Of a stretch of 64,000 nt of DNA, positions 51 to 64,000 are shown one piece after another. Source of the DNA: Bacillota bacterium. GTDB lineage: Bacteria; Bacillota; Clostridia; Christensenellales; UMGS416. The notes under the pieces are model-generated. The model made no database searches and was not told the DNA's origin. It worked only from the letters and a program-made list of their open reading frames with translations. The stretch lies in NCBI GenBank assembly GCA_023422005.1, contig JAEZSC010000031.1, positions 9,514 through 73,513 on the forward strand. Direction: 5' to 3'. The first letter of the stretch is position 1, and every line of letters begins with the position of its first letter. The position numbers were made by a program, and so were the translations under genes.

Positions 51-1223
51 TTAAATAGCCAATAACATCCACATCTGTTCGATCACCTGCTGTGGAGAGC
101 AATTGAACACGCCCTGGGCCATACCGGCGCTGCCGCCGCCCCGGCCGCCCAGCGCGGCGATGGCGGCTTTGAGCAGCGCGCCCATGTCCCGCCCCAGCTC
201 CGCCGGCGAGGCCAACGCTACGCGGGCTCCCTGCGCCTCTTCCACCGCCAGCAGTGCCGTGACGCCCTGCTTCGCCAGCAGAACCGCCAGCGCCCGGGCA
301 TCGTCAAAGGGCCGCGAACCCAAGTTCAGCGCCAGCAGCTTGTGCTCCGCCTCCTGCCGTTCCAACAGCGTCAGCGCCTCCACACGCAACAGTTCCCCGC
401 GTTGGGCTTCGTTCTCCTTTTTCAGCCCGCGGTTCTCCTGCAGCAGCGCTTCCACCCTGTCCGCCAGCACATCGGCGCCCACGCTGAGCACGGCGCTCAA
501 GCGCCCCACCAGCGCGTGCTGGCCGCGGCTGTGCCCGAAGGCCCGGCCACCGCACACGAAGCGCAGCCGCAGGCCGCCCTTGTGGCGCTCGCTGCCCAGC
601 AGCAGCAGGCTGCCCACGGCGCCTGTGGCGTCTGGGTGGGTGCCGCCGCAGGGGCACTGGTCCACGCCTTCCACTTCTATGATGCGGATGTCCTCTTGTA
701 CCTCTGGCAGGCTGCGCAGGCGCATGGCCGCCAACTCCGCCTCATCGGGGAAGAGCACGCGCACCGGCCGGTTCTCCCAGATCAGAGCGTTGACTGCGGC
801 CTCGGCGTCGGCCAGTTCCTGCGCCGGCAACTCCCGGTTCAGGTCTATGGTGACCTCCTGTTCGCCCAGGTGGAAGCCCACCGTGGCAGCGCCACGGGCA
901 TAGAGCACCGCCGAGAGCAGGTGCTGCCCCAGGTGCTGCTGCATATGGTCCAGCCGCCGGGCCCAGTCCACACGGCAGGCAAGGCCTCTGCGGCCCTCGG
1001 GCAACGCCGCCAGCTCATGCCAAGGTTCGCCATCCCGCAGTTGCACCCGCAGCACCGGCATGCCGGCGATGTCGCCGCGGTCGTCGGGCTGGCCGCCGCT
1101 CTCGGCATAGAAGGCCGTACGGTCCAGCCGCACCCAGAAGCCGTTGGGAGAGGGTTCCACGGCCACGATGTCGGCGGTGAAATAGCGCATGGAGCTGTCG
1201 CGCAGATGCAGGCGTTCGGTCAT
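51..1223 (-). CDS. AlaX-type alanyl-tRNA editing protein (tRNA synthetase second additional domain)
   Basis: HxxxH (HLGQHLL) and CPCGGTH zinc motifs typical of the AlaRS/ThrRS editing domain. Start trimmed to ATG at 1223 (MTERLHL), downstream of GGGAGG. The ORF track start at 1334 lies inside the upstream gene. Confidence 0.75.
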   Translation of the reverse strand: MTERLHLRDSSMRYFTADIVAVEPSPNGFWVRLDRTAFYAESGGQPDDRGDIAGMPVLRVQLRDGEPWHELAALPEGRRGLACRVDWARRLDHMQQHLGQHLLSAVLYARGAATVGFHLGEQEVTIDLNRELPAQELADAEAAVNALIWENRPVRVLFPDEAELAAMRLRSLPEVQEDIRIIEVEGVDQCPCGGTHPDATGAVGSLLLLGSERHKGGLRLRFVCGGRAFGHSRGQHALVGRLSAVLSVGADVLADRVEALLQENRGLKKENEAQRGELLRVEALTLLERQEAEHKLLALNLGSRPFDDARALAVLLAKQGVTALLAVEEAQGARVALASPAELGRDMGALLKAAIAALGGRGGGSAGMAQGVFNCSPQQVIEQMWMLLAI

Positions 1224-1825
1224 CTTTGGTTCCATCCTCCCTCTCTCTGATAAGGCTGGCTGCCGTCCAGCACAAAGTCCGCCGCGTCCTGGGGCCGCTG
1301 GAGCGCCAGGTACCGGTCTTCCGCGGCCATCCATTCCAACCAGAAGTCCCGCGCAGCTTCGCCGTCCCGCTCCAGCCCCCGGCGCAGCCTCAATTCCCTG
1401 GGGCAGTCCATAAATACCTTGATGTCATAATAGCCGCGCAGAGCATCCGACAACGCGTAGCATCCCTCTACGGCCACCAGGCCCAGGGGCTGCGCCGGCC
1501 CGTCGTCTATCAGTTCCTCGCTCTCCCAATCGTTGCGCCACAGGCGGCCGGGCAGGCCCTGGCGCAGCGGGTCCAGCACCTGCGTCCGCAGGCGGCCGAT
1601 GTCATAACCGCAACCCGGTTCGCCGCCAGCCATGTCCAGCCCCCGGCGTTGGGCGGGCAGCTTGTAGAAATCGTCCATGTGCACTGCCATACCCCGCCCA
1701 GCCCACTGCACCAGCAGTCCGGCCAGCGTGCTCTTGCCCGCGCCGCCGCAGCCGTCGATGCCCACCAGCACCAGCGGCTTTTGGCGCAGCAGCTCATCGC
1801 ATGCCCGTATCAACGCGTCCAGCAT
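1220..1825 (-). CDS. P-loop uridine kinase-family protein
   Basis: Walker A GIDGCGGAGKST and overall uridine kinase/PRK-like layout. ATG at 1825 is preceded by AAGGGA. The stop overlaps the next gene's start. Confidence 0.65.
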   Translation of the reverse strand: MLDALIRACDELLRQKPLVLVGIDGCGGAGKSTLAGLLVQWAGRGMAVHMDDFYKLPAQRRGLDMAGGEPGCGYDIGRLRTQVLDPLRQGLPGRLWRNDWESEELIDDGPAQPLGLVAVEGCYALSDALRGYYDIKVFMDCPRELRLRRGLERDGEAARDFWLEWMAAEDRYLALQRPQDAADFVLDGSQPYQREGGWNQR

Positions 1826-1908
1826 CGTCTGTCCCTTCAAAGCAAATAATGATACAATCCTATCACAGATTCAGTCTGCGACAAATAGCGCGGGCCCCAA
1901 GGAGCATC

Positions 1909-2751
1909 ATGACTGCTTATCGATACGCCGCAGGATATTCGCCGGCCTCGTCGGAGGGCGCACAGTTTTTCGCGCTGGTGCGCAATGTGTTTGGGCTGGA
2001 CCTCTCGCTCATCGCCGCGCTGGATTGGCCGGCCATGGGCTATTGCTGCCATTCGCTGTTGGCCGGTGAGGAGATGGCGGCCAACGTTTCGGTGCAGCGC
2101 ATGACGCTGCAGGTGCTGGGCCGGCCCACGGAGGCGGTGCAGCTGGGCGCGGTGGCCGTGGCGCCGGAGCACCGGGGCCGCGGCCTGGCCCGCCAGCTCA
2201 TAGAGCGGGTGCTGGCCGAATATGCCGACACACCGCTCATGATCCTGTTCCCCAACGAAACCGTGCTGGATTTCTACCCGAAGTTCGGCTTTCGCGCGGT
2301 ACCCCAATACACGGCGGTATGCGATCTGCCTCCCAACTCCACCGTGCCCGCGCCACCGCGGCTGGCTCCGGACAGCCCAGAGGCGCAATACATCCTATCG
2401 CAGCCTCAAGCCGCCTCGTCCATACTGGATGCCCGCGGCAATCCGCTGGCGCTGTGGGCCAACATAAGGCTGGTGTGCCCGGACGGCCTCTATTCCGCGG
2501 GCGAAGGCCGCGCGCTGCTGGCGCAGCAGCAGGGCGACACGCTGCACATCTTCGACGTGTTTTCACCGGAGCCCTTCGACATCCTGCCGTGGGTGGCTTG
2601 GCCGGGTGTGCGCCGCTTGTGCCTGCACTTCACGCCAGACTGGCTGGGCCTGCCGTACACCTGGCAACCCGACCCCGACGAAATCCTGTTCGTGCGCGGC
2701 CCACTGCCGGAAATGCCGCCGTTCTGCTTCCCGGCGACGGGGAAGACGTAA
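1909..2751 (+). CDS. GNAT family N-acetyltransferase
   Basis: Acetyl-CoA binding motif VAVAPEHRGRGLARQLI. ATG at 1909 follows AAGGAG. Confidence 0.75.
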   Translation: MTAYRYAAGYSPASSEGAQFFALVRNVFGLDLSLIAALDWPAMGYCCHSLLAGEEMAANVSVQRMTLQVLGRPTEAVQLGAVAVAPEHRGRGLARQLIERVLAEYADTPLMILFPNETVLDFYPKFGFRAVPQYTAVCDLPPNSTVPAPPRLAPDSPEAQYILSQPQAASSILDARGNPLALWANIRLVCPDGLYSAGEGRALLAQQQGDTLHIFDVFSPEPFDILPWVAWPGVRRLCLHFTPDWLGLPYTWQPDPDEILFVRGPLPEMPPFCFPATGKT

Positions 2752-2805
2752 GAGACCTCTCCCCAAGGTTTGTCTCGTAGAGCGCCCACAGCACTTGTAA
2801 GGGGT

Positions 2806-2868
2806 ATTTCGCGCCCGTGGGCGCGACCAAAGGGCTTTCCGGTCGCCCTTTGGAAACCTTCGGACCCA
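2806..2868. repeat. 63-nt double-hairpin intergenic repeat, copy A
   Basis: ATTTCGCGCCCGTGGGCGCGACCAAAGGGCTTTCCGGTCGCCCTTTGGAAACCTTCGGACCCA. Near-identical copy at 49018..49080 (4 mismatches by manual alignment). Contains GCGCCC/GGGCGC and CCAAAGGGC/GCCCTTTGG stems. Confidence 0.8.
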
Positions 2869-3015
2869 TCTTATAAACAAATATGAGTAATTACTAGTGG
2901 CAAGAAACCGAAGGCGGATTCACTCCGCCGAGGAAACAATCACCTAGAAAGAAGATGACACAAGAACCCCGCCGCAGCGGTCCCCGTTCTGGGGAAGCAC
3001 GCGTGAGACAGGCAG

Positions 3016-3051
3016 CGAAAACCCGCCTGCCGACGGTTATCGGCAGGCGGG
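3016..3051 (-). terminator. Rho-independent terminator candidate
   Basis: 12-bp stem CCCGCCTGCCGA/TCGGCAGGCGGG, followed on the minus strand by TTTTC. Confidence 0.6.
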
Positions 3052-3080
3052 CAACGGGTACTGTGCTCAGACTGTCTGAA

Positions 3081-3110
3081 TCGCAGTTGATGCCGCAGCA
3101 TCAACTGCGA
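3081..3110 (-). terminator. 13-bp perfect hairpin immediately after the SSB-like stop codon
   Basis: TCGCAGTTGATGC-cgca-GCATCAACTGCGA. There is no clear U-tract, so the role (terminator, RNA stabiliser or protein site) is uncertain. Confidence 0.4.
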
Positions 3111-3111
3111 A

Positions 3112-3744
3112 TTAGTAGGGCGCTACTTCCGGCGTCTCGATGAACGACACCGATACCTCATAGGCTGTGCGGTTTTCCACGGTGTTGTCCGCGAGCTTTT
3201 TCTGGTATTGCCGGCTCTGCATGCGCCCGTGGATGAACACCTTCTGACCGACTTCCAGCGACTCGGCATAGCGGGCATTGCGCCCCCAGGAAATCACCGG
3301 AATGTAGTCACTCTTGTTGTAGGGCCGGTTGACCGCGATGAGCAGATCGGTGATCTCCCGGCCGAAGGGTGTGGTGCGATACACCGGTGTGCGGCACACG
3401 TAGCCCTCCAACAGCACCTGGTTGGGGTTGTCTGACATGTCCTCCGGCGGGGAGATGTGCCGGGCGAACACCGTGAGGATCAGCCGGTTATGCCCATCCA
3501 TCAGGCGGTTGTAGGAGCGCAGCTGGCCGATAACCGCCAGCTGGTCCTCGGTGGTCACATCCATCAGGTGCAGCAGACGGTCGCTCACCATGACCGGCAG
3601 CACATCAGCCACGCCGCTGAGCCGCGGCACCTCCAGCATCAGTGCATAAAACTTTTCTCCATAGAGGCTGTGGGAGTACGTGGGCGGCTCAACGACCTTG
3701 CCCTTGAGGATCACTTGGTTGTTCTCGTGGGTTCCCTTTTCCAA
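3112..3744 (-). CDS. SSB-like protein with two OB-fold-like halves
   Basis: NQVILKGKV... and NQVLLEGYV... starts of two similar halves resemble the N-termini of SSB OB folds. No acidic C-terminal tail. TTG start. Confidence 0.5.
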   Translation of the reverse strand: MEKGTHENNQVILKGKVVEPPTYSHSLYGEKFYALMLEVPRLSGVADVLPVMVSDRLLHLMDVTTEDQLAVIGQLRSYNRLMDGHNRLILTVFARHISPPEDMSDNPNQVLLEGYVCRTPVYRTTPFGREITDLLIAVNRPYNKSDYIPVISWGRNARYAESLEVGQKVFIHGRMQSRQYQKKLADNTVENRTAYEVSVSFIETPEVAPY

Positions 3745-3937
3745 CGCCTATCACTCCGTGCTTCTTTTGATTCAGATATGAGAGTATATGGTTGGCCCAT
3801 GGGGACTATTCCAGCTTGCCAAAAAAGCAAGGATGGAAGACGAGGTTGCAACCGGCTGCCGGGATTAAATAGATATCGCTCGGCGGCTTGTGCGGCGAGC
3901 GATAACGTACAGATATGGCGGGTCGTCAGTGAAAGAC

Positions 3938-59899: not shown

Positions 59900-60063
59900 T
59901 CGTTATATACTCCTTCGTTTTTTGGTAGTTCTACATAGCAATACTATATCCTGCATAATTTGTCAATCGAAAATATGACTATTTATGCAGGTTGGTGACC
60001 TGCCATGTGATGGTGCCGCATCTCGACCATTAGGGGGCCGGCAATTCATACCAGACCCCCTGG

Positions 60064-60436
60064 TGGTCGAGGTGACAGGATTTGAAGGTTCAATGCGCTT
60101 GTGCGCGCAACGCCTGCGCCATTCCTCTTCAACCGCAGTGTTTCCTTGCTTCGCAGTTCGTACACTTTTGTCTCTGACTTCTACGGCAGGTTCTGCATTG
60201 CCATGCTCAACCATTAAGGGGTCCGGTAATATGTTACCGGACCCCTTAATGGTCGAGGTGACAGGATTTGAAGGTGCTATGCGCTTGCGCGCGCCACGCC
60301 TGCGCCATTCCTCTTTAACCGCGGTGTTTCCTTGCTGCGCAGATCGTGTGCGTTTCTCTCTGGCTTTCGCAGCGAGTTCAAAGCGACACCATATACGACC
60401 AAAAAGCTACCCGGTAATAAGTACCGGGTAGCTTTT
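60064..60436 (-). repeat. Two tandem ~186-nt units, each ending (minus strand) in the last ~26 nt of tRNA-Pro plus a long palindrome
   Basis: TGGTCGAGGTGACAGGATTTGAA recurs at 60064, 60250 and 60437 (the real tRNA). The adjacent ~98 nt of the two units align with about nine mismatches. Palindromes at ~60019-60073, 60206-60257 and 60396-60442. Confidence 0.85.
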
Positions 60437-60513
60437 TGGTCGAGGTGACAGGATTTGAACCTGCGGCCTCTGCGTCCCGAACGCAGCGCTCTACCAAACT
60501 GAGCCACACCTCG
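60437..60513 (-). tRNA. tRNA-Pro (anticodon CGG), CCA encoded
   Basis: Manual fold: acceptor CGAGGTG/CACCTCG, D arm GCTC..GAGC, anticodon arm CTGCG-TTCGGGA-CGCAG, T arm GCAGG-TTCAAAT-CCTGT; 77 nt. Confidence 0.9.
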
Positions 60514-60516
60514 ATA

Positions 60517-60565
60517 TGGAGCCAATGATGGGATTCGGACCCATGACCTGCGGTTTACGAATCCG
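60517..60565 (-). pseudogene. 3' half of tRNA-Thr (anticodon CGT), truncated in the anticodon stem
   Basis: CGGATTCGTAAACCGCAGGTCATGGGTCCGAATCCCATCATTGGCTCCA. No D arm or 5' acceptor strand upstream. The T loop reads TCCGAAT instead of TTCGAAT. Confidence 0.8.
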
Positions 60566-60734
60566 TTAACAAGCATTTCATAACATTTCTTAACGATGCA
60601 CAAGTTCAGCAAACGAGCCAAATAAACATGTTCATTATACATATTTTTTTGCAACTGCGCTTGATATTGATTATTGATGTGAACCATATGTGAACCATAT
60701 TCTTTATCCAAACAGACCAAACAGTTCCAGTATA

Positions 60735-61328
60735 TTACCCCGGAATCCCTAACGAATCGTGCAATTTCTGAATGTCAAGATACTCAAAAGCATAGCACGT
60801 ATCCGGCATTGTTGCACATTTGCCCTGAACATTTCGTGGGCAGTGCTCATAAAACAACGATCCGCTTTCTTGTGTCAGAGCTTTATTCATATAGATATGA
60901 TGATTTGCGTCAAAAAATAGCACAGAAAATAGACTTCCCCTTTTTTCTGCAACAACTCGCATACCAGTATTTAGTTCAGATGAAAACTGGTATAAACAGT
61001 TGCCCTCAACAATAGAGTCTATTCTTTCGTCTCTAAAGTGATAAGCCTTGAGAATTTGCTTGACTACATCGAGTTGGTCATCGCGTATTTGATGAAAATG
61101 CAACTGATCCCCCATCGACCTGTCAAGAAGATCTCTGTAACAGTGTTGTGAAAACAGTGGAAGAGCAAAAAAGACGAAAGAACTCAACTTTCCACTAAAA
61201 TCCGCCTCGTCAAGCACATAATTATTGAACACTCCCGGAATGTGAATGCAATCTTTCCGAAACTCTCGAAAAGTGAAAGTTATGTTTTGCCGTGATGTAT
61301 CCGGTTCAATAGGTGCGTTAACTGGCAT
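60735..61328 (-). CDS. Hypothetical 197-aa protein, candidate toxin partner of the Panacea-domain gene
   Basis: ATG overlaps the 3' end of the upstream DUF4065 gene by 11 nt. No recognisable family. AT-rich codon usage. Confidence 0.55.
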   Translation of the reverse strand: MPVNAPIEPDTSRQNITFTFREFRKDCIHIPGVFNNYVLDEADFSGKLSSFVFFALPLFSQHCYRDLLDRSMGDQLHFHQIRDDQLDVVKQILKAYHFRDERIDSIVEGNCLYQFSSELNTGMRVVAEKRGSLFSVLFFDANHHIYMNKALTQESGSLFYEHCPRNVQGKCATMPDTCYAFEYLDIQKLHDSLGIPG

Positions 61329-61785
61329 GAGAACCCGCGCTTACGAAATACTCGTAAATAAGTTTATCATCAATCCTAATATTGCACGGATCAAATGGGC
61401 TCAGTCCAGCACGGGCAGCAATCCATGGCCTTTCTAGATGTGAAATATCCTCAAGTTCGTCAGCAGTATAGCCTCCATAAACACCCCACACCTGTTCAAG
61501 AATGTCAAGAACATCCTGGGCTATATCGGTGGGAGCCTGTGCCATTGGAATGTCTCTCCACCCATGCTCCTTAAACATGTGATATGCAGGAGGACATACG
61601 GGCCCATGAACCCAAGCCTCAAACTTCTCTTCGAAAAGGAAGTTTTCTATACCAACCTCACATTCGTTTAACCTAGCTAGCGTCCAGGAATAGGCATAAT
61701 AAAGAAGCTTCTGCAGTTTCTTGTTGGACATTGAAGCCTTGCTTAAAAAGAACGAGCTAATCGTACCAACATTCGAATAAATCAA
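61318..61785 (-). CDS. Panacea (DUF4065, SocA-like) antitoxin-type protein
   Basis: KLQKLLYYAYSW ... FEAWVHGPVCPPAYHMFKEHG signature of the Panacea/DUF4065 domain. TTG at 61785 lies 8 nt after AGGAGG. Confidence 0.75.
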   Translation of the reverse strand: MIYSNVGTISSFFLSKASMSNKKLQKLLYYAYSWTLARLNECEVGIENFLFEEKFEAWVHGPVCPPAYHMFKEHGWRDIPMAQAPTDIAQDVLDILEQVWGVYGGYTADELEDISHLERPWIAARAGLSPFDPCNIRIDDKLIYEYFVSAGSHAS

Positions 61786-62040
61786 CGTTGCCACCTCCTG
61801 ACTATATTATTAAACTTCATGCCAAAAAGTCAATACTCATAACGAAATACGGCTGCGACGTCTTATTTATTTTCACTTGCTAGTAAGTCTATGCATCTTT
61901 GTAGAAGCAGATTTTCCTTTGCAAATCATCCCAAATCGGATAGATGGCCAACAGATTGGTTTCACATCGTGGCTGAGCTCAATTCGACAACATTCGCACA
62001 AATCAGCTGTTAACATGAGAATATATGTTTTTTATACGCT

Positions 62041-62304
62041 TTGTGTGCATTTACGAGGAGAATCTCGTATGAAGAAAGGGATTTGGTTTTCTTTCTAGCC
62101 TTAGTCCTCTTAGCTTCTAGTTGCAGCGGCCCCGTACTTGGCGCCACACACGCCCAGACCAACGCCGAAACATCAGAAGTTAGCCCGATGCTCGAAGCGG
62201 CCTCGGCAGGGGCTTACGTGAAGGCGCGGGAGAACCGCGGTCGATACTCCGGCAATGTGGCCGTATGGGAATTTCAGATATCGGTAACGAAAACGCAAAG
62301 TTGA
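62041..62304 (+). pseudogene. Small lipoprotein gene, apparently frameshifted
   Basis: A strong RBS (GAGGAG) precedes ATG at 62069, giving MKKGIWFSF-stop. The -1 frame continues as ...VFFLALVLLASSCSGP (signal peptide and lipobox). Confidence 0.4.
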
Positions 62305-62352: not shown

Positions 62353-63105
62353 CTAACCCAGAACCGCCCGCTCCACCACTGATTCCCCGCGCTCCCTAAA
62401 GCTGCTGAACCCGCTGCCTTTTACGTCGTCATAATACCAGCGCGGATACCCCCGCCGGCGCTGGGCACGCGCTTTCCTTTTCCGGTAGTCGTGCTCGACC
62501 AGCTCTTTAAGCCTCTGGTTCCTGCTCAAGTATCCCAGCGCGCTTACATGCATATTCCGCGCCTCGTTTTCCTGCATCAGCCCCATTGCTATGCCGGCAT
62601 CGCGCATGGTGAAGCCGTTGAAGTACATCAGGTGTATGAACTGGCGCTGCCGCTGGGGAAGGTTGTCCACTTCTTCCCTTACGATCCTTGCCACATCGCG
62701 CCGCGAAATAAGCTCCGCTGTATCCTCCAGTGAATCGTCAACGATTGCATCCACGTACTCCATGTCTTCGGAGCCGGGGATGGGTATGTTAAGGGACACG
62801 GAGTTATACTCCGGGTTCATTGTGCCGTGCTGAATGCCCAGGTGCTTCTGTAAGCAAGTGCGCGCAAACCAGCCATATACGGTTGTGAATTTTGCGCCGC
62901 GATCATCGAATTTATCAATGGCACGGTGCATTCCGTCAAAACACACCTGTTCCAAATCTTCATAGGAGTCCGCACCGTTAGCAATGGCGAATTTAAGATA
63001 CGGCTTTATATACTTGACAGTTACCCCTCGGTTTTGCTCCCATAGTTGCGAAATTAAGGATCGATCACCGGCTTGTATAGCCCATACCAGTTCTTCGTTT
63101 GTCAA
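62353..63105 (-). CDS. Sigma-70-family (region 2/4) protein of a mobile element
   Basis: Region 2-like DLEQVCFDGMHRAIDKFD and region 4-like LPQRQRQFIHLMYFNGFTMRDAGIAMG. TTG start after AGGAGGG. Confidence 0.65.
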   Translation of the reverse strand: MTNEELVWAIQAGDRSLISQLWEQNRGVTVKYIKPYLKFAIANGADSYEDLEQVCFDGMHRAIDKFDDRGAKFTTVYGWFARTCLQKHLGIQHGTMNPEYNSVSLNIPIPGSEDMEYVDAIVDDSLEDTAELISRRDVARIVREEVDNLPQRQRQFIHLMYFNGFTMRDAGIAMGLMQENEARNMHVSALGYLSRNQRLKELVEHDYRKRKARAQRRRGYPRWYYDDVKGSGFSSFRERGESVVERAVLG

Positions 63106-63269: not shown

Positions 63270-63518
63270 GTGTCAGTCGTGGCATATGCGTGGATTCTGT
63301 TTGCAACACTGCTTGTTGGGGCCGGATGCTGGTCCGTGGGGGAGCACATAATATCGGTGTTCCGTTCAAACGAGGAGCACAGCAGCGCCCAGGAGGCCAG
63401 GGCAAAATGGCTTAAGACCGTTGACAAGCCGCATGCATACGCAACAATTGCTCTTGCCGTAGTTTTCATCCTGGGCGCACTGCTCACCTATTCTTTCTTT
63501 GAATCTGTGGCGCGTTAA
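63270..63518 (+). CDS. Small two-TM membrane protein, hypothetical
   Basis: Hydrophobic segments at both ends of an 82-codon ORF. GTG start, no clear RBS. Confidence 0.3.
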   Translation: MSVVAYAWILFATLLVGAGCWSVGEHIISVFRSNEEHSSAQEARAKWLKTVDKPHAYATIALAVVFILGALLTYSFFESVAR

Positions 63519-63521
63519 CGC

Positions 63522-64000
63522 CTATCTGCCCCACAGAATTTCGTTTTTCATGGCGGTGCGAATCTTTTCGATTGTGTCGCCAATCGTCTTTTGCCGGATC
63601 GCTGCCGGCTTAAGCGCAAGGGTCGGGCGTAGCCGCTCGAGCTCAGCCGATACACGCTGCTGGAGCTCCTGCTGATAGCGGCCCTGCTGTTCGGGAGTAA
63701 GCACCATCGTCTTTTCCACGTTCGTATTGGGGTTGCTACCGGTCAACACGAACGGCAGGACAACCGGCACGCCATCAGCCGCCATGTCTGCAGCCGATTC
63801 ATACTGCTCTTTTGCCGCCTGTGTGATGGCGTTGCGCTGCCCATTCAAGCTGTTGATTTCGTCGCGCTTTACCTTGGGGTCCATCGTCGGTGAGTTTTCG
63901 ATGTCGCGAACCTGCGCGGACAACTCACCCACAGCGTCCGCCGCCGCGCTGATATAGCGGTACTTCGCTTCATCCGGGTACTGTGCTTCGGGGTTTTGCT
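63522..64000 (-). CDS. C-terminal part of a larger mobile-element protein (partial, runs off the window)
   Basis: The frame stays open from 64000 down to the stop at 63522 (…QNPEAQYPDEAKYRYISAAADAVGELSAQVRDIE…). Helical composition resembles C-terminal modules of large polyvalent ICE/phage proteins. Confidence 0.5.
   Translation of the reverse strand, partial: QNPEAQYPDEAKYRYISAAADAVGELSAQVRDIENSPTMDPKVKRDEINSLNGQRNAITQAAKEQYESAADMAADGVPVVLPFVLTGSNPNTNVEKTMVLTPEQQGRYQQELQQRVSAELERLRPTLALKPAAIRQKTIGDTIEKIRTAMKNEILWGR

Follow-up and report, generated by a model that had tools for sequence, protein, structure and literature searches.

What does a gene encode that overlaps a Panacea antitoxin gene at the edge of a mobile element and that matches no named protein family? 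The question is raised by two overlapping open reading frames (ORFs) on the minus strand, which together span positions 60735 to 61794 of a 64,000-nucleotide stretch of a Bacillota genome (GTDB lineage Christensenellales, UMGS416; assembly GCA_023422005.1, contig JAEZSC010000031.1, positions 9,514 to 73,513). This whole stretch is called the window here and is numbered from its first letter. The upstream gene, panA (61318 to 61785, minus strand), encodes a stand-alone protein of the Panacea (DUF4065) antitoxin type with 155 residues, and the downstream gene (60735 to 61328, minus strand) encodes a protein of 197 residues counted from its ATG. An initial annotation, made from the sequence without database searches, had proposed the two as a candidate new pair of a Panacea antitoxin (PanA) and a toxin (PanT). 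Our analysis suggests, with a probability that we put at roughly 55%, that they form a bicistronic type II PanA-PanT module with a divergent, putative toxin of the T1 type, and that the module is AT-rich cargo close to the attachment (att) site of an element that has inserted into a tRNA-Thr gene in the genome of an uncultured Bacillota bacterium.

The upstream protein is indeed a Panacea protein, as had been proposed from its signature. It matched the Pfam model SocA_Panacea (PF13274) with an E value of 2.1e-15 and 58.1 bits, above the cut-off of 25.7, over model positions 1 to 112 of 113, and it matched phrog_1281 with an E value of 2.4e-35. It is acidic, with a predicted isoelectric point (pI) of 4.9. 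Its closest phage homologues (Paenibacillus, Streptococcus Javan59, and cyanophage), at about 40% identity, have other partners or none. The Panacea domain was first characterised in SocA, and the window protein has a partial match to the NCBIfam SocA model (NF047745; E = 3.5e-16), which would fit a type VI toxin-antitoxin (TA) system like SocAB of Caulobacter, in which the Panacea protein hands the toxin to ClpXP for degradation. However, this match scores 59.4 bits, far below the equivalog cut-off of 190 bits, SocB and the partner are unrelated, and PanAT pairs form direct complexes, as reported for five other validated pairs (Kurata et al. 2022, PMC8832971). The likeness to SocAB lies in the Panacea domain of the antitoxin, and a different mechanism of neutralisation is expected. 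Judged by these comparisons, the pair is not a SocAB system, and we consider a SocAB-like mechanism extremely unlikely.

Direct searches placed the 197-residue protein in no family. At E ≤ 0.1 it had no match in Pfam, NCBIfam, PHROGs, PADLOC, or the PDB sequences, and a profile of 39 family members likewise had no match among the PDB sequences. Scanning GTDB representative genomes and IMG/VR with patterns yielded no relatives, nor did tblastn against phage and plasmid collections. The choice of method mattered: a k-mer-indexed protein search returned the query alone, whereas an exhaustive phmmer (HMMER) search of 1.84 billion representatives returned 55 clusters at E ≤ 1e-3, 35 of them at E ≤ 1e-10, and it took a profile comparison guided by gene context to reach known relatives (see below). 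A search with the family profile gave 37 clusters at 90% identity, which are mostly metagenomic and of which none is named or has a Pfam domain.

We inspected contigs for nine partner clusters, with 25 to 100% identity to the query. In all nine, the partner is directly preceded, on the same strand, by a Panacea gene encoding 153 to 164 residues, and the two genes overlap by 1, 8, or 11 nt or are separated by a 4-nt gap. The flanks differ at each pair and include a phage tape measure gene, IS66, GmrSD with a KAP NTPase, HsdR with the HEPN protein AbiU2, RelA_SpoT, and a capsule (cps)/sortase region. The same pair is found in the Streptococcus (S. equinus) satellite prophages Javan218 and Javan219 (JavanS218_0017/0018), with a 4-nt overlap and at the end of the element beside paratox. 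A family hidden Markov model (HMM) built without the Javan218/219 partner matched it with E values of 1e-25 to 1e-28, and the Javan218 partner, QBX08094.1, and the window protein share 23% identity. Over 11 loci, the identities between PanA proteins and those between their partners were correlated with r = 0.93 (55 pairs; this value is descriptive, as the pairs are not independent). As a side observation, on three independent contigs (L010 to L012, positions 896 to 3745), a homologous pair lies about 1.8 kb downstream of the gene for a 949-residue RelA_SpoT-domain protein.

Shared pairing and co-divergence of this kind are, at the level of sequence, what marks a mobile module of two genes that are inherited together. 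The initial annotation had described the genes as overlapping, and had named their never occurring together elsewhere as an outcome that would speak against a module; the nine clusters, the satellite prophages, and the correlated divergence all show the pair conserved as a unit in other genomes. The pair in the window also agrees with each criterion for PanAT systems given by Kurata et al. (2022) that can be tested computationally. The genes lie at most 100 nt apart, with an overlap of 11 nt (61318 to 61328, minus strand, ATGCCAGTTAA) between the stop codon of panA and the ATG of the partner, and they are not part of a longer conserved operon, the flanks being different in every inspected context. 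The overlap, which had been noted at these positions before, suggests translational coupling.

The family HMM gave weak matches (E of about 2e-3 among 7,534 ORFs) to ORFs located directly behind other phage Panacea genes, namely, gp24 of Bacteroides phage BI-TP1 and an ORF of an uncultured phage (L096). Both ORFs also match phrog_8366, of which orf161 of Salmonella phage Emek is a core member (E = 9e-66). The query itself had no match to phrog_8366 at E ≤ 1, and only these two intermediates match both families. Emek orf161 (YP_006560566.1) is a member of T1, the first-listed PanT cluster of Kurata et al. 2022 (PNAS, PMC8832971), which is found in many phyla, has the antitoxin gene first, and is annotated as "hypothetical protein."

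To keep the comparison from being circular, the T1 set was gathered with the Emek protein and its counterpart from Pseudomonas phage CF60a as the sole queries, which added 30 metagenome relatives and gave 32 sequences. When the 76-sequence family profile was compared with this T1 alignment by hhalign, the probability was 96.8% with an E value of 2.1e-10 over 137 columns, with query residues 2 to 148 aligned to T1 positions 4 to 141 of 143. Against the Emek and CF60a proteins alone, the probability was 69.7% (E = 4e-5), and all twenty controls with shuffled columns stayed at or below 0.2%. A PanA-like ORF is located directly upstream in 37 of the 38 T1 metagenome loci, and the remaining locus has no upstream sequence. 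By this profile comparison, the partner family is remotely homologous to PanT cluster T1 and phrog_8366, and the 197-residue protein is related to T1-type PanT but is divergent and extended. The earlier description of the partner as unassignable and possibly a new toxin fold is not supported.

The known T1 systems (Emek YP_006560565/6, C. cadaveris WP_074844973/0, and CF60a) resemble the window pair in layout, with a stand-alone Panacea gene first, a small coupled partner, and a location in prophages or islands. Their partners and the window family have in common a basic tail at the N-terminus, the FSF motif, a helix with L..LSQ, and a terminal beta-hairpin with D...(H/F)..Y after it. They are homologous over nearly the whole length of T1, yet their identity is only about 15%. 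The window family differs by extra C-terminal modules, which are a tail with three cysteines in the query subfamily (C163, C171, and C178; the core covers residues of about 15 to 148) and a helical tail of about 70 residues in another subfamily. It differs also in charge: the pI of the query is 5.7 and the family median is 6.65, compared with a basic median of 9.6 in T1. A third subfamily (the Javan218 partner, P0045, P0053, and L016) matches phrog_24206, of unknown function, with E values of 1e-8 to 1e-14. Like the pair studied here, these are PanA-coupled genes at the end of a mobile element, and the window protein itself had no match to phrog_24206 at E ≤ 1.

Cluster T4 of Kurata et al., which contains hypothetical proteins of Streptococcus and Lachnospiraceae, was also considered as the identity of the family. 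It is the membrane-type cluster of Streptococcus phage P9 gp52 and was ruled out, since the query has no hydrophobic segment; for the same reason, the partner is not a membrane toxin. Two further sets of sequences came to light beside the T1 comparison. On L149 and L150 (Ga0315540_10018883 and Ga0315556_1009896; 358 to 1245 in each), a single stop-free ORF covers PanA-like and T1-type PanT regions and may encode a natural fusion of PanA with PanT, which is present in two samples. In cyanophage CrV-01T (L023, MH636380.1, 1814 to 2215), the ORF behind a PanA homologue starts with a basic tail and ISFSYKYFQ, has a weak HMM match, and then continues into what is annotated as a CRISPR array; this ORF may be what is left of a T1-type partner after truncation.

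Is the partner a toxin, and if so, of what kind? Seven positions stand out in the 76 aligned members: R124 (100%), D140 (99%), H143 (99%), F34 (96%), N36 (95%), F20 (95%), and H77 (93%). H79, H144, Y146, and the cysteine cluster are conserved in the query subfamily only. A single-sequence AlphaFold prediction of the partner had a mean predicted local distance difference test score (pLDDT) of 37, and an AlphaFold2 model from a 35-sequence alignment had a pLDDT of 77.5 and a predicted TM-score of 0.75, with residues 167 to 197 unreliable. From residue 77 onward, the order of elements in this model is beta-alpha-alpha-beta-beta-beta, as in RelE-type toxins. RelE/ParE-superfamily toxins make up 20 of the top 50 Foldseek matches of the model in the PDB, with target TM-scores of up to 0.49. 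They include HigB1, HigB2, HigB, YoeB (three entries), YafQ (two), HP0892 (three), HP0894, ParE (two), PrpT, BrnT, Cami1 (three), and a pneumococcal TA toxin. For a superfamily that is a small fraction of the PDB, this enrichment among the matches to the predicted model is far beyond chance.

RelE/ParE-superfamily toxins such as YoeB, HigB, YafQ, RelE, and HP0892 are ribosome-dependent mRNA endonucleases. By our own reading, they resemble the modelled window protein, beyond the order of secondary structure in the core, in an Arg that starts the penultimate strand and an Asp/His after the last strand (as in HigB and YoeB). The window protein differs from them in being twice as long, with an N-terminal region of about 75 residues and a C-terminal tail, and in being acidic. 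A RelE/ParE-like core is suggestive from the model, and membership of the superfamily is not established. A YoeB-like catalytic motif (E108/R124/H143/Y146) was considered and dropped, as hhalign gave a null result and Y146, H144, H79, and E108 are not conserved across the family. As a separate observation, the only near-significant structural match was to a 208-residue viral protein in BFVD, D7RWK8 (Foldseek E = 2.8e-3, probability 1.00, 192 columns, TM-score 0.43), which probably belongs to the same family and is carried by a phage.

Another proposal is that the partner is a metal-dependent DNA nuclease in which the D140-x-N-H-H beta-hairpin/helix and the three-cysteine tail form an HNH-like (beta-beta-alpha-Me) zinc site. 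The DxNHH motif does follow a beta-hairpin and precede a helix, and the tail contains CPx7Cx6C and has a weak match to zf_CCCH (E = 0.29). Against this, the cysteine cluster, H144, and Y146 are restricted to one subfamily, the tail was modelled with low confidence, no HNH or other nuclease was among the Foldseek matches, and Pfam gave no HNH match. We regard such a nuclease as very unlikely.

The partner is likely a toxic effector that is neutralised by PanA, and it is plausible that it is a RelE-like RNase that blocks translation. Tested T1 members are labelled "mRNase" in Table S1 of Kurata et al. 2022 (PMC8832971). In the mechanism that we propose, the 197-residue protein would be a toxic effector, most likely an RNase acting on translation through its RelE/ParE-like alpha/beta core, with H77, R124, D140, and H143 as candidate active-site residues. 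The acidic PanA would bind it and neutralise it directly, as was found for other stand-alone Panacea antitoxins by Ernits et al. (2023).

Several results weigh against this reading. In E. coli, the C. cadaveris T1 member was toxic and its PanA did not rescue growth, and the T1 proteins of E. coli MOD1 and Emek were not toxic (Kurata et al. 2022, PMC8832971). R124 and H143, invariant in the window family, are not conserved in T1 proper, and for this reason they may be non-catalytic. The partner is acidic, unlike T1 and unlike typical RNA-binding toxins. Foldseek found no significant match to the model in the PDB (best E = 0.8). None of the RelE/ParE Pfam models was matched at E ≤ 10 by the query, its core fragment, 39 members, or four family/T1-type partners. 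Comparison of the family or T1 by hhalign with RelE, YoeB, YafQ, HigB, Gp49, and ParE gave probabilities below 2% throughout; the targets were single YoeB/RelE sequences, an alignment of 120 YoeB sequences with little diversity (Neff 1.4), and six single sequences of RelE/ParE type. Finally, neither PanA nor the partner matched any family of PADLOC-DB 2.0 at E ≤ 1.

The missing toxicity of the MOD1 and Emek proteins, the acidity of the query, and its lack of a significant match to a known toxin would be expected if T1-type proteins and the window family were harmless Panacea-associated regulators or phage accessory factors that resemble TA systems in layout only. Yet the C. cadaveris member was toxic, and false negatives are common, according to the same study, when toxicity is assayed in a heterologous host (Kurata et al. 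2022, PMC8832971). The strict coupling of the two genes across unrelated contexts and their co-divergence are typical of TA modules, and the near-invariant polar residues suggest an enzyme. A harmless partner thus seems unlikely to us. Less probable again is that this branch is enzymatically active in another way, with a catalytic activity or a target other than that of an mRNase, for example, as a metal-dependent nuclease or a modifying enzyme. Such a view draws on the family's own invariant set of H77, R124, D140, and H143, which is absent from T1 proper, on the three-cysteine tail, and on the non-basic charge. If it were true, the partner would represent a Panacea-controlled effector with a new mechanism, used in conflicts that involve phages or mobile elements.

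What the module does for its carrier is suggested by context: it may stabilise the element, or shield the population of host cells against phage through an abortive arrest of growth, or both. The second role could even be the main one, with the pair acting as an anti-phage abortive-infection or defence module in which Panacea senses infection and releases or activates the effector. Homologous pairs lie near GmrSD with a KAP NTPase, near HsdR with HEPN AbiU2, in a prophage tail region, and at the end of a satellite prophage beside paratox. The window pair is itself AT-rich cargo, located at the att end of its element, and a sensory role of the Panacea domain has been proposed (Ernits et al. 2023). 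However, PADLOC was matched by neither protein, the evidence from context is suggestive, and the idea overlaps with a TA module instead of excluding one. We hold a chiefly defensive role to be possible, with some doubt.

With the assignment to T1, an apparent orphan gene is placed in a known class. The PanAT class and T1 had already been catalogued, and what is new here is the conserved residues and tail modules of a divergent branch. T1, the commonest and yet experimentally least understood class of Panacea-associated toxins, thereby gains a branch that is very divergent and whose members come from Bacillota of the gut and the environment as well as from prophages and satellite prophages. Mutagenesis of the T1-type mechanism is straightforward, since the family alignment singles out four polar residues that are nearly invariant and a C-terminal module that varies. 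In other respects, the pair is the usual kind of TA or defence cargo carried at the end of a prophage or island.

The start of panA deserves a comment. A GTG at 61794 would give a product of 158 residues. The true start is probably TTG 61785, because a Shine-Dalgarno sequence, AGGAGG (61794 to 61799, minus strand, read from the sequence), lies 8 nt upstream of this TTG and GTG 61794 overlaps the Shine-Dalgarno sequence itself. The resulting length of 155 residues is that given by the gene caller on a metagenome contig of 100% identity (L001), and it agrees with the earlier estimate of about 155. Just upstream of panA, a promoter-like site, TTGACT-16 nt-AATAAT (61806 to 61833, minus strand), matches the consensus at 10 of 12 positions. 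It is a weak candidate promoter, identified by consensus match only in a scan that found 6 such sites in the region, compared with 3.1 ± 2.0 in shuffled sequences.

As for the genomic setting, the 3' half of a tRNA-Thr(CGT) gene (60517 to 60571, minus strand) lies immediately beside a tRNA-Pro gene. It begins in the anticodon loop, runs through the T-arm to CCA, and aligns in register over this stretch with a genuine tRNA-Thr(cgt), that of locus L061; the 5' half is absent. It occurs once in the window and has a weak match to the tRNA clan of Rfam, and ARAGORN calls no tRNA there. The fragment is, by its sequence, the displaced 3' remnant that stays behind when an element inserts into a tRNA gene, and it marks the junction between element and chromosome as an att-type remnant. 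The first chromosomal gene beyond the edge is an intact tRNA-Pro(CGG) (60437 to 60513, minus strand; ARAGORN, Rfam 69 bits), followed by a terminator hairpin (inverted repeat I2). Left of 60437 lies a chromosomal dlt-like cluster with an MBOAT protein, a carrier protein, and an AMP-binding enzyme. The panA-panT pair begins 165 nt inside the junction, and for this reason the initial annotation was right to place it at the very edge of a mobile element, with the tRNA-Thr remnant and the dlt-like chromosome to the left and element genes to the right.

Both genes are AT-rich, as had been remarked, with a GC content of 0.44 for panA and 0.40 for the partner, compared with 0.57 for the window and 0.55 for the remaining element sequence within it. 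They are the only genes of an AT-rich segment (60572 to 62100) with a GC content of 0.40. Since this value differs from the 0.55 of the rest of the element, the pair looks like separately acquired cargo. Further into the element, the window contains a gene for a 250-residue protein with a weak match to sigma-70 region 2 (62353 to 63105, minus strand), a gene for an 82-residue hydrophobic protein on the opposite strand to its element neighbours (63270 to 63518, plus strand), and the 3' end of the gene for a 1796-residue LPD38 "polyvalent" protein that continues past the end of the window (63522 to 64000, minus strand). Beyond this end, contig L001 (634 to 7807) carries further element genes, for a pRha-domain protein and a small serine resolvase.

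For an empty-site comparison, the nearest GTDB representative was the metagenome-assembled genome Bacillota OH_CBB_189, which is 89% identical in nucleotide sequence along 5 kb of the dlt region. Synteny stops at window position 59993, before the tRNA region and exactly where a tandem block with tRNA-Pro sequence begins. This block contains three copies of the last 23 nt of tRNA-Pro at its 3' end (TTCAAATCCTGTCACCTCGACCA), spaced 186 to 187 nt apart; two lie at 60064 and 60250, and the third, at 60437, belongs to the real gene. The additional two (in the block from 60038 to 60459) end tandem units of about 186 nt that are 83% alike, and a strong terminator-like hairpin follows each. ARAGORN and Rfam called no RNA gene at these copies, which could be stacked att-site remnants of past integrations at tRNA-Pro or tRNA-derived small RNAs. 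Between the stop codon of the partner and the tRNA-Thr remnant, a tandem direct repeat, ATATGGTTCAC twice (60678 to 60700, minus strand), could be an arm-type binding site of a recombinase.

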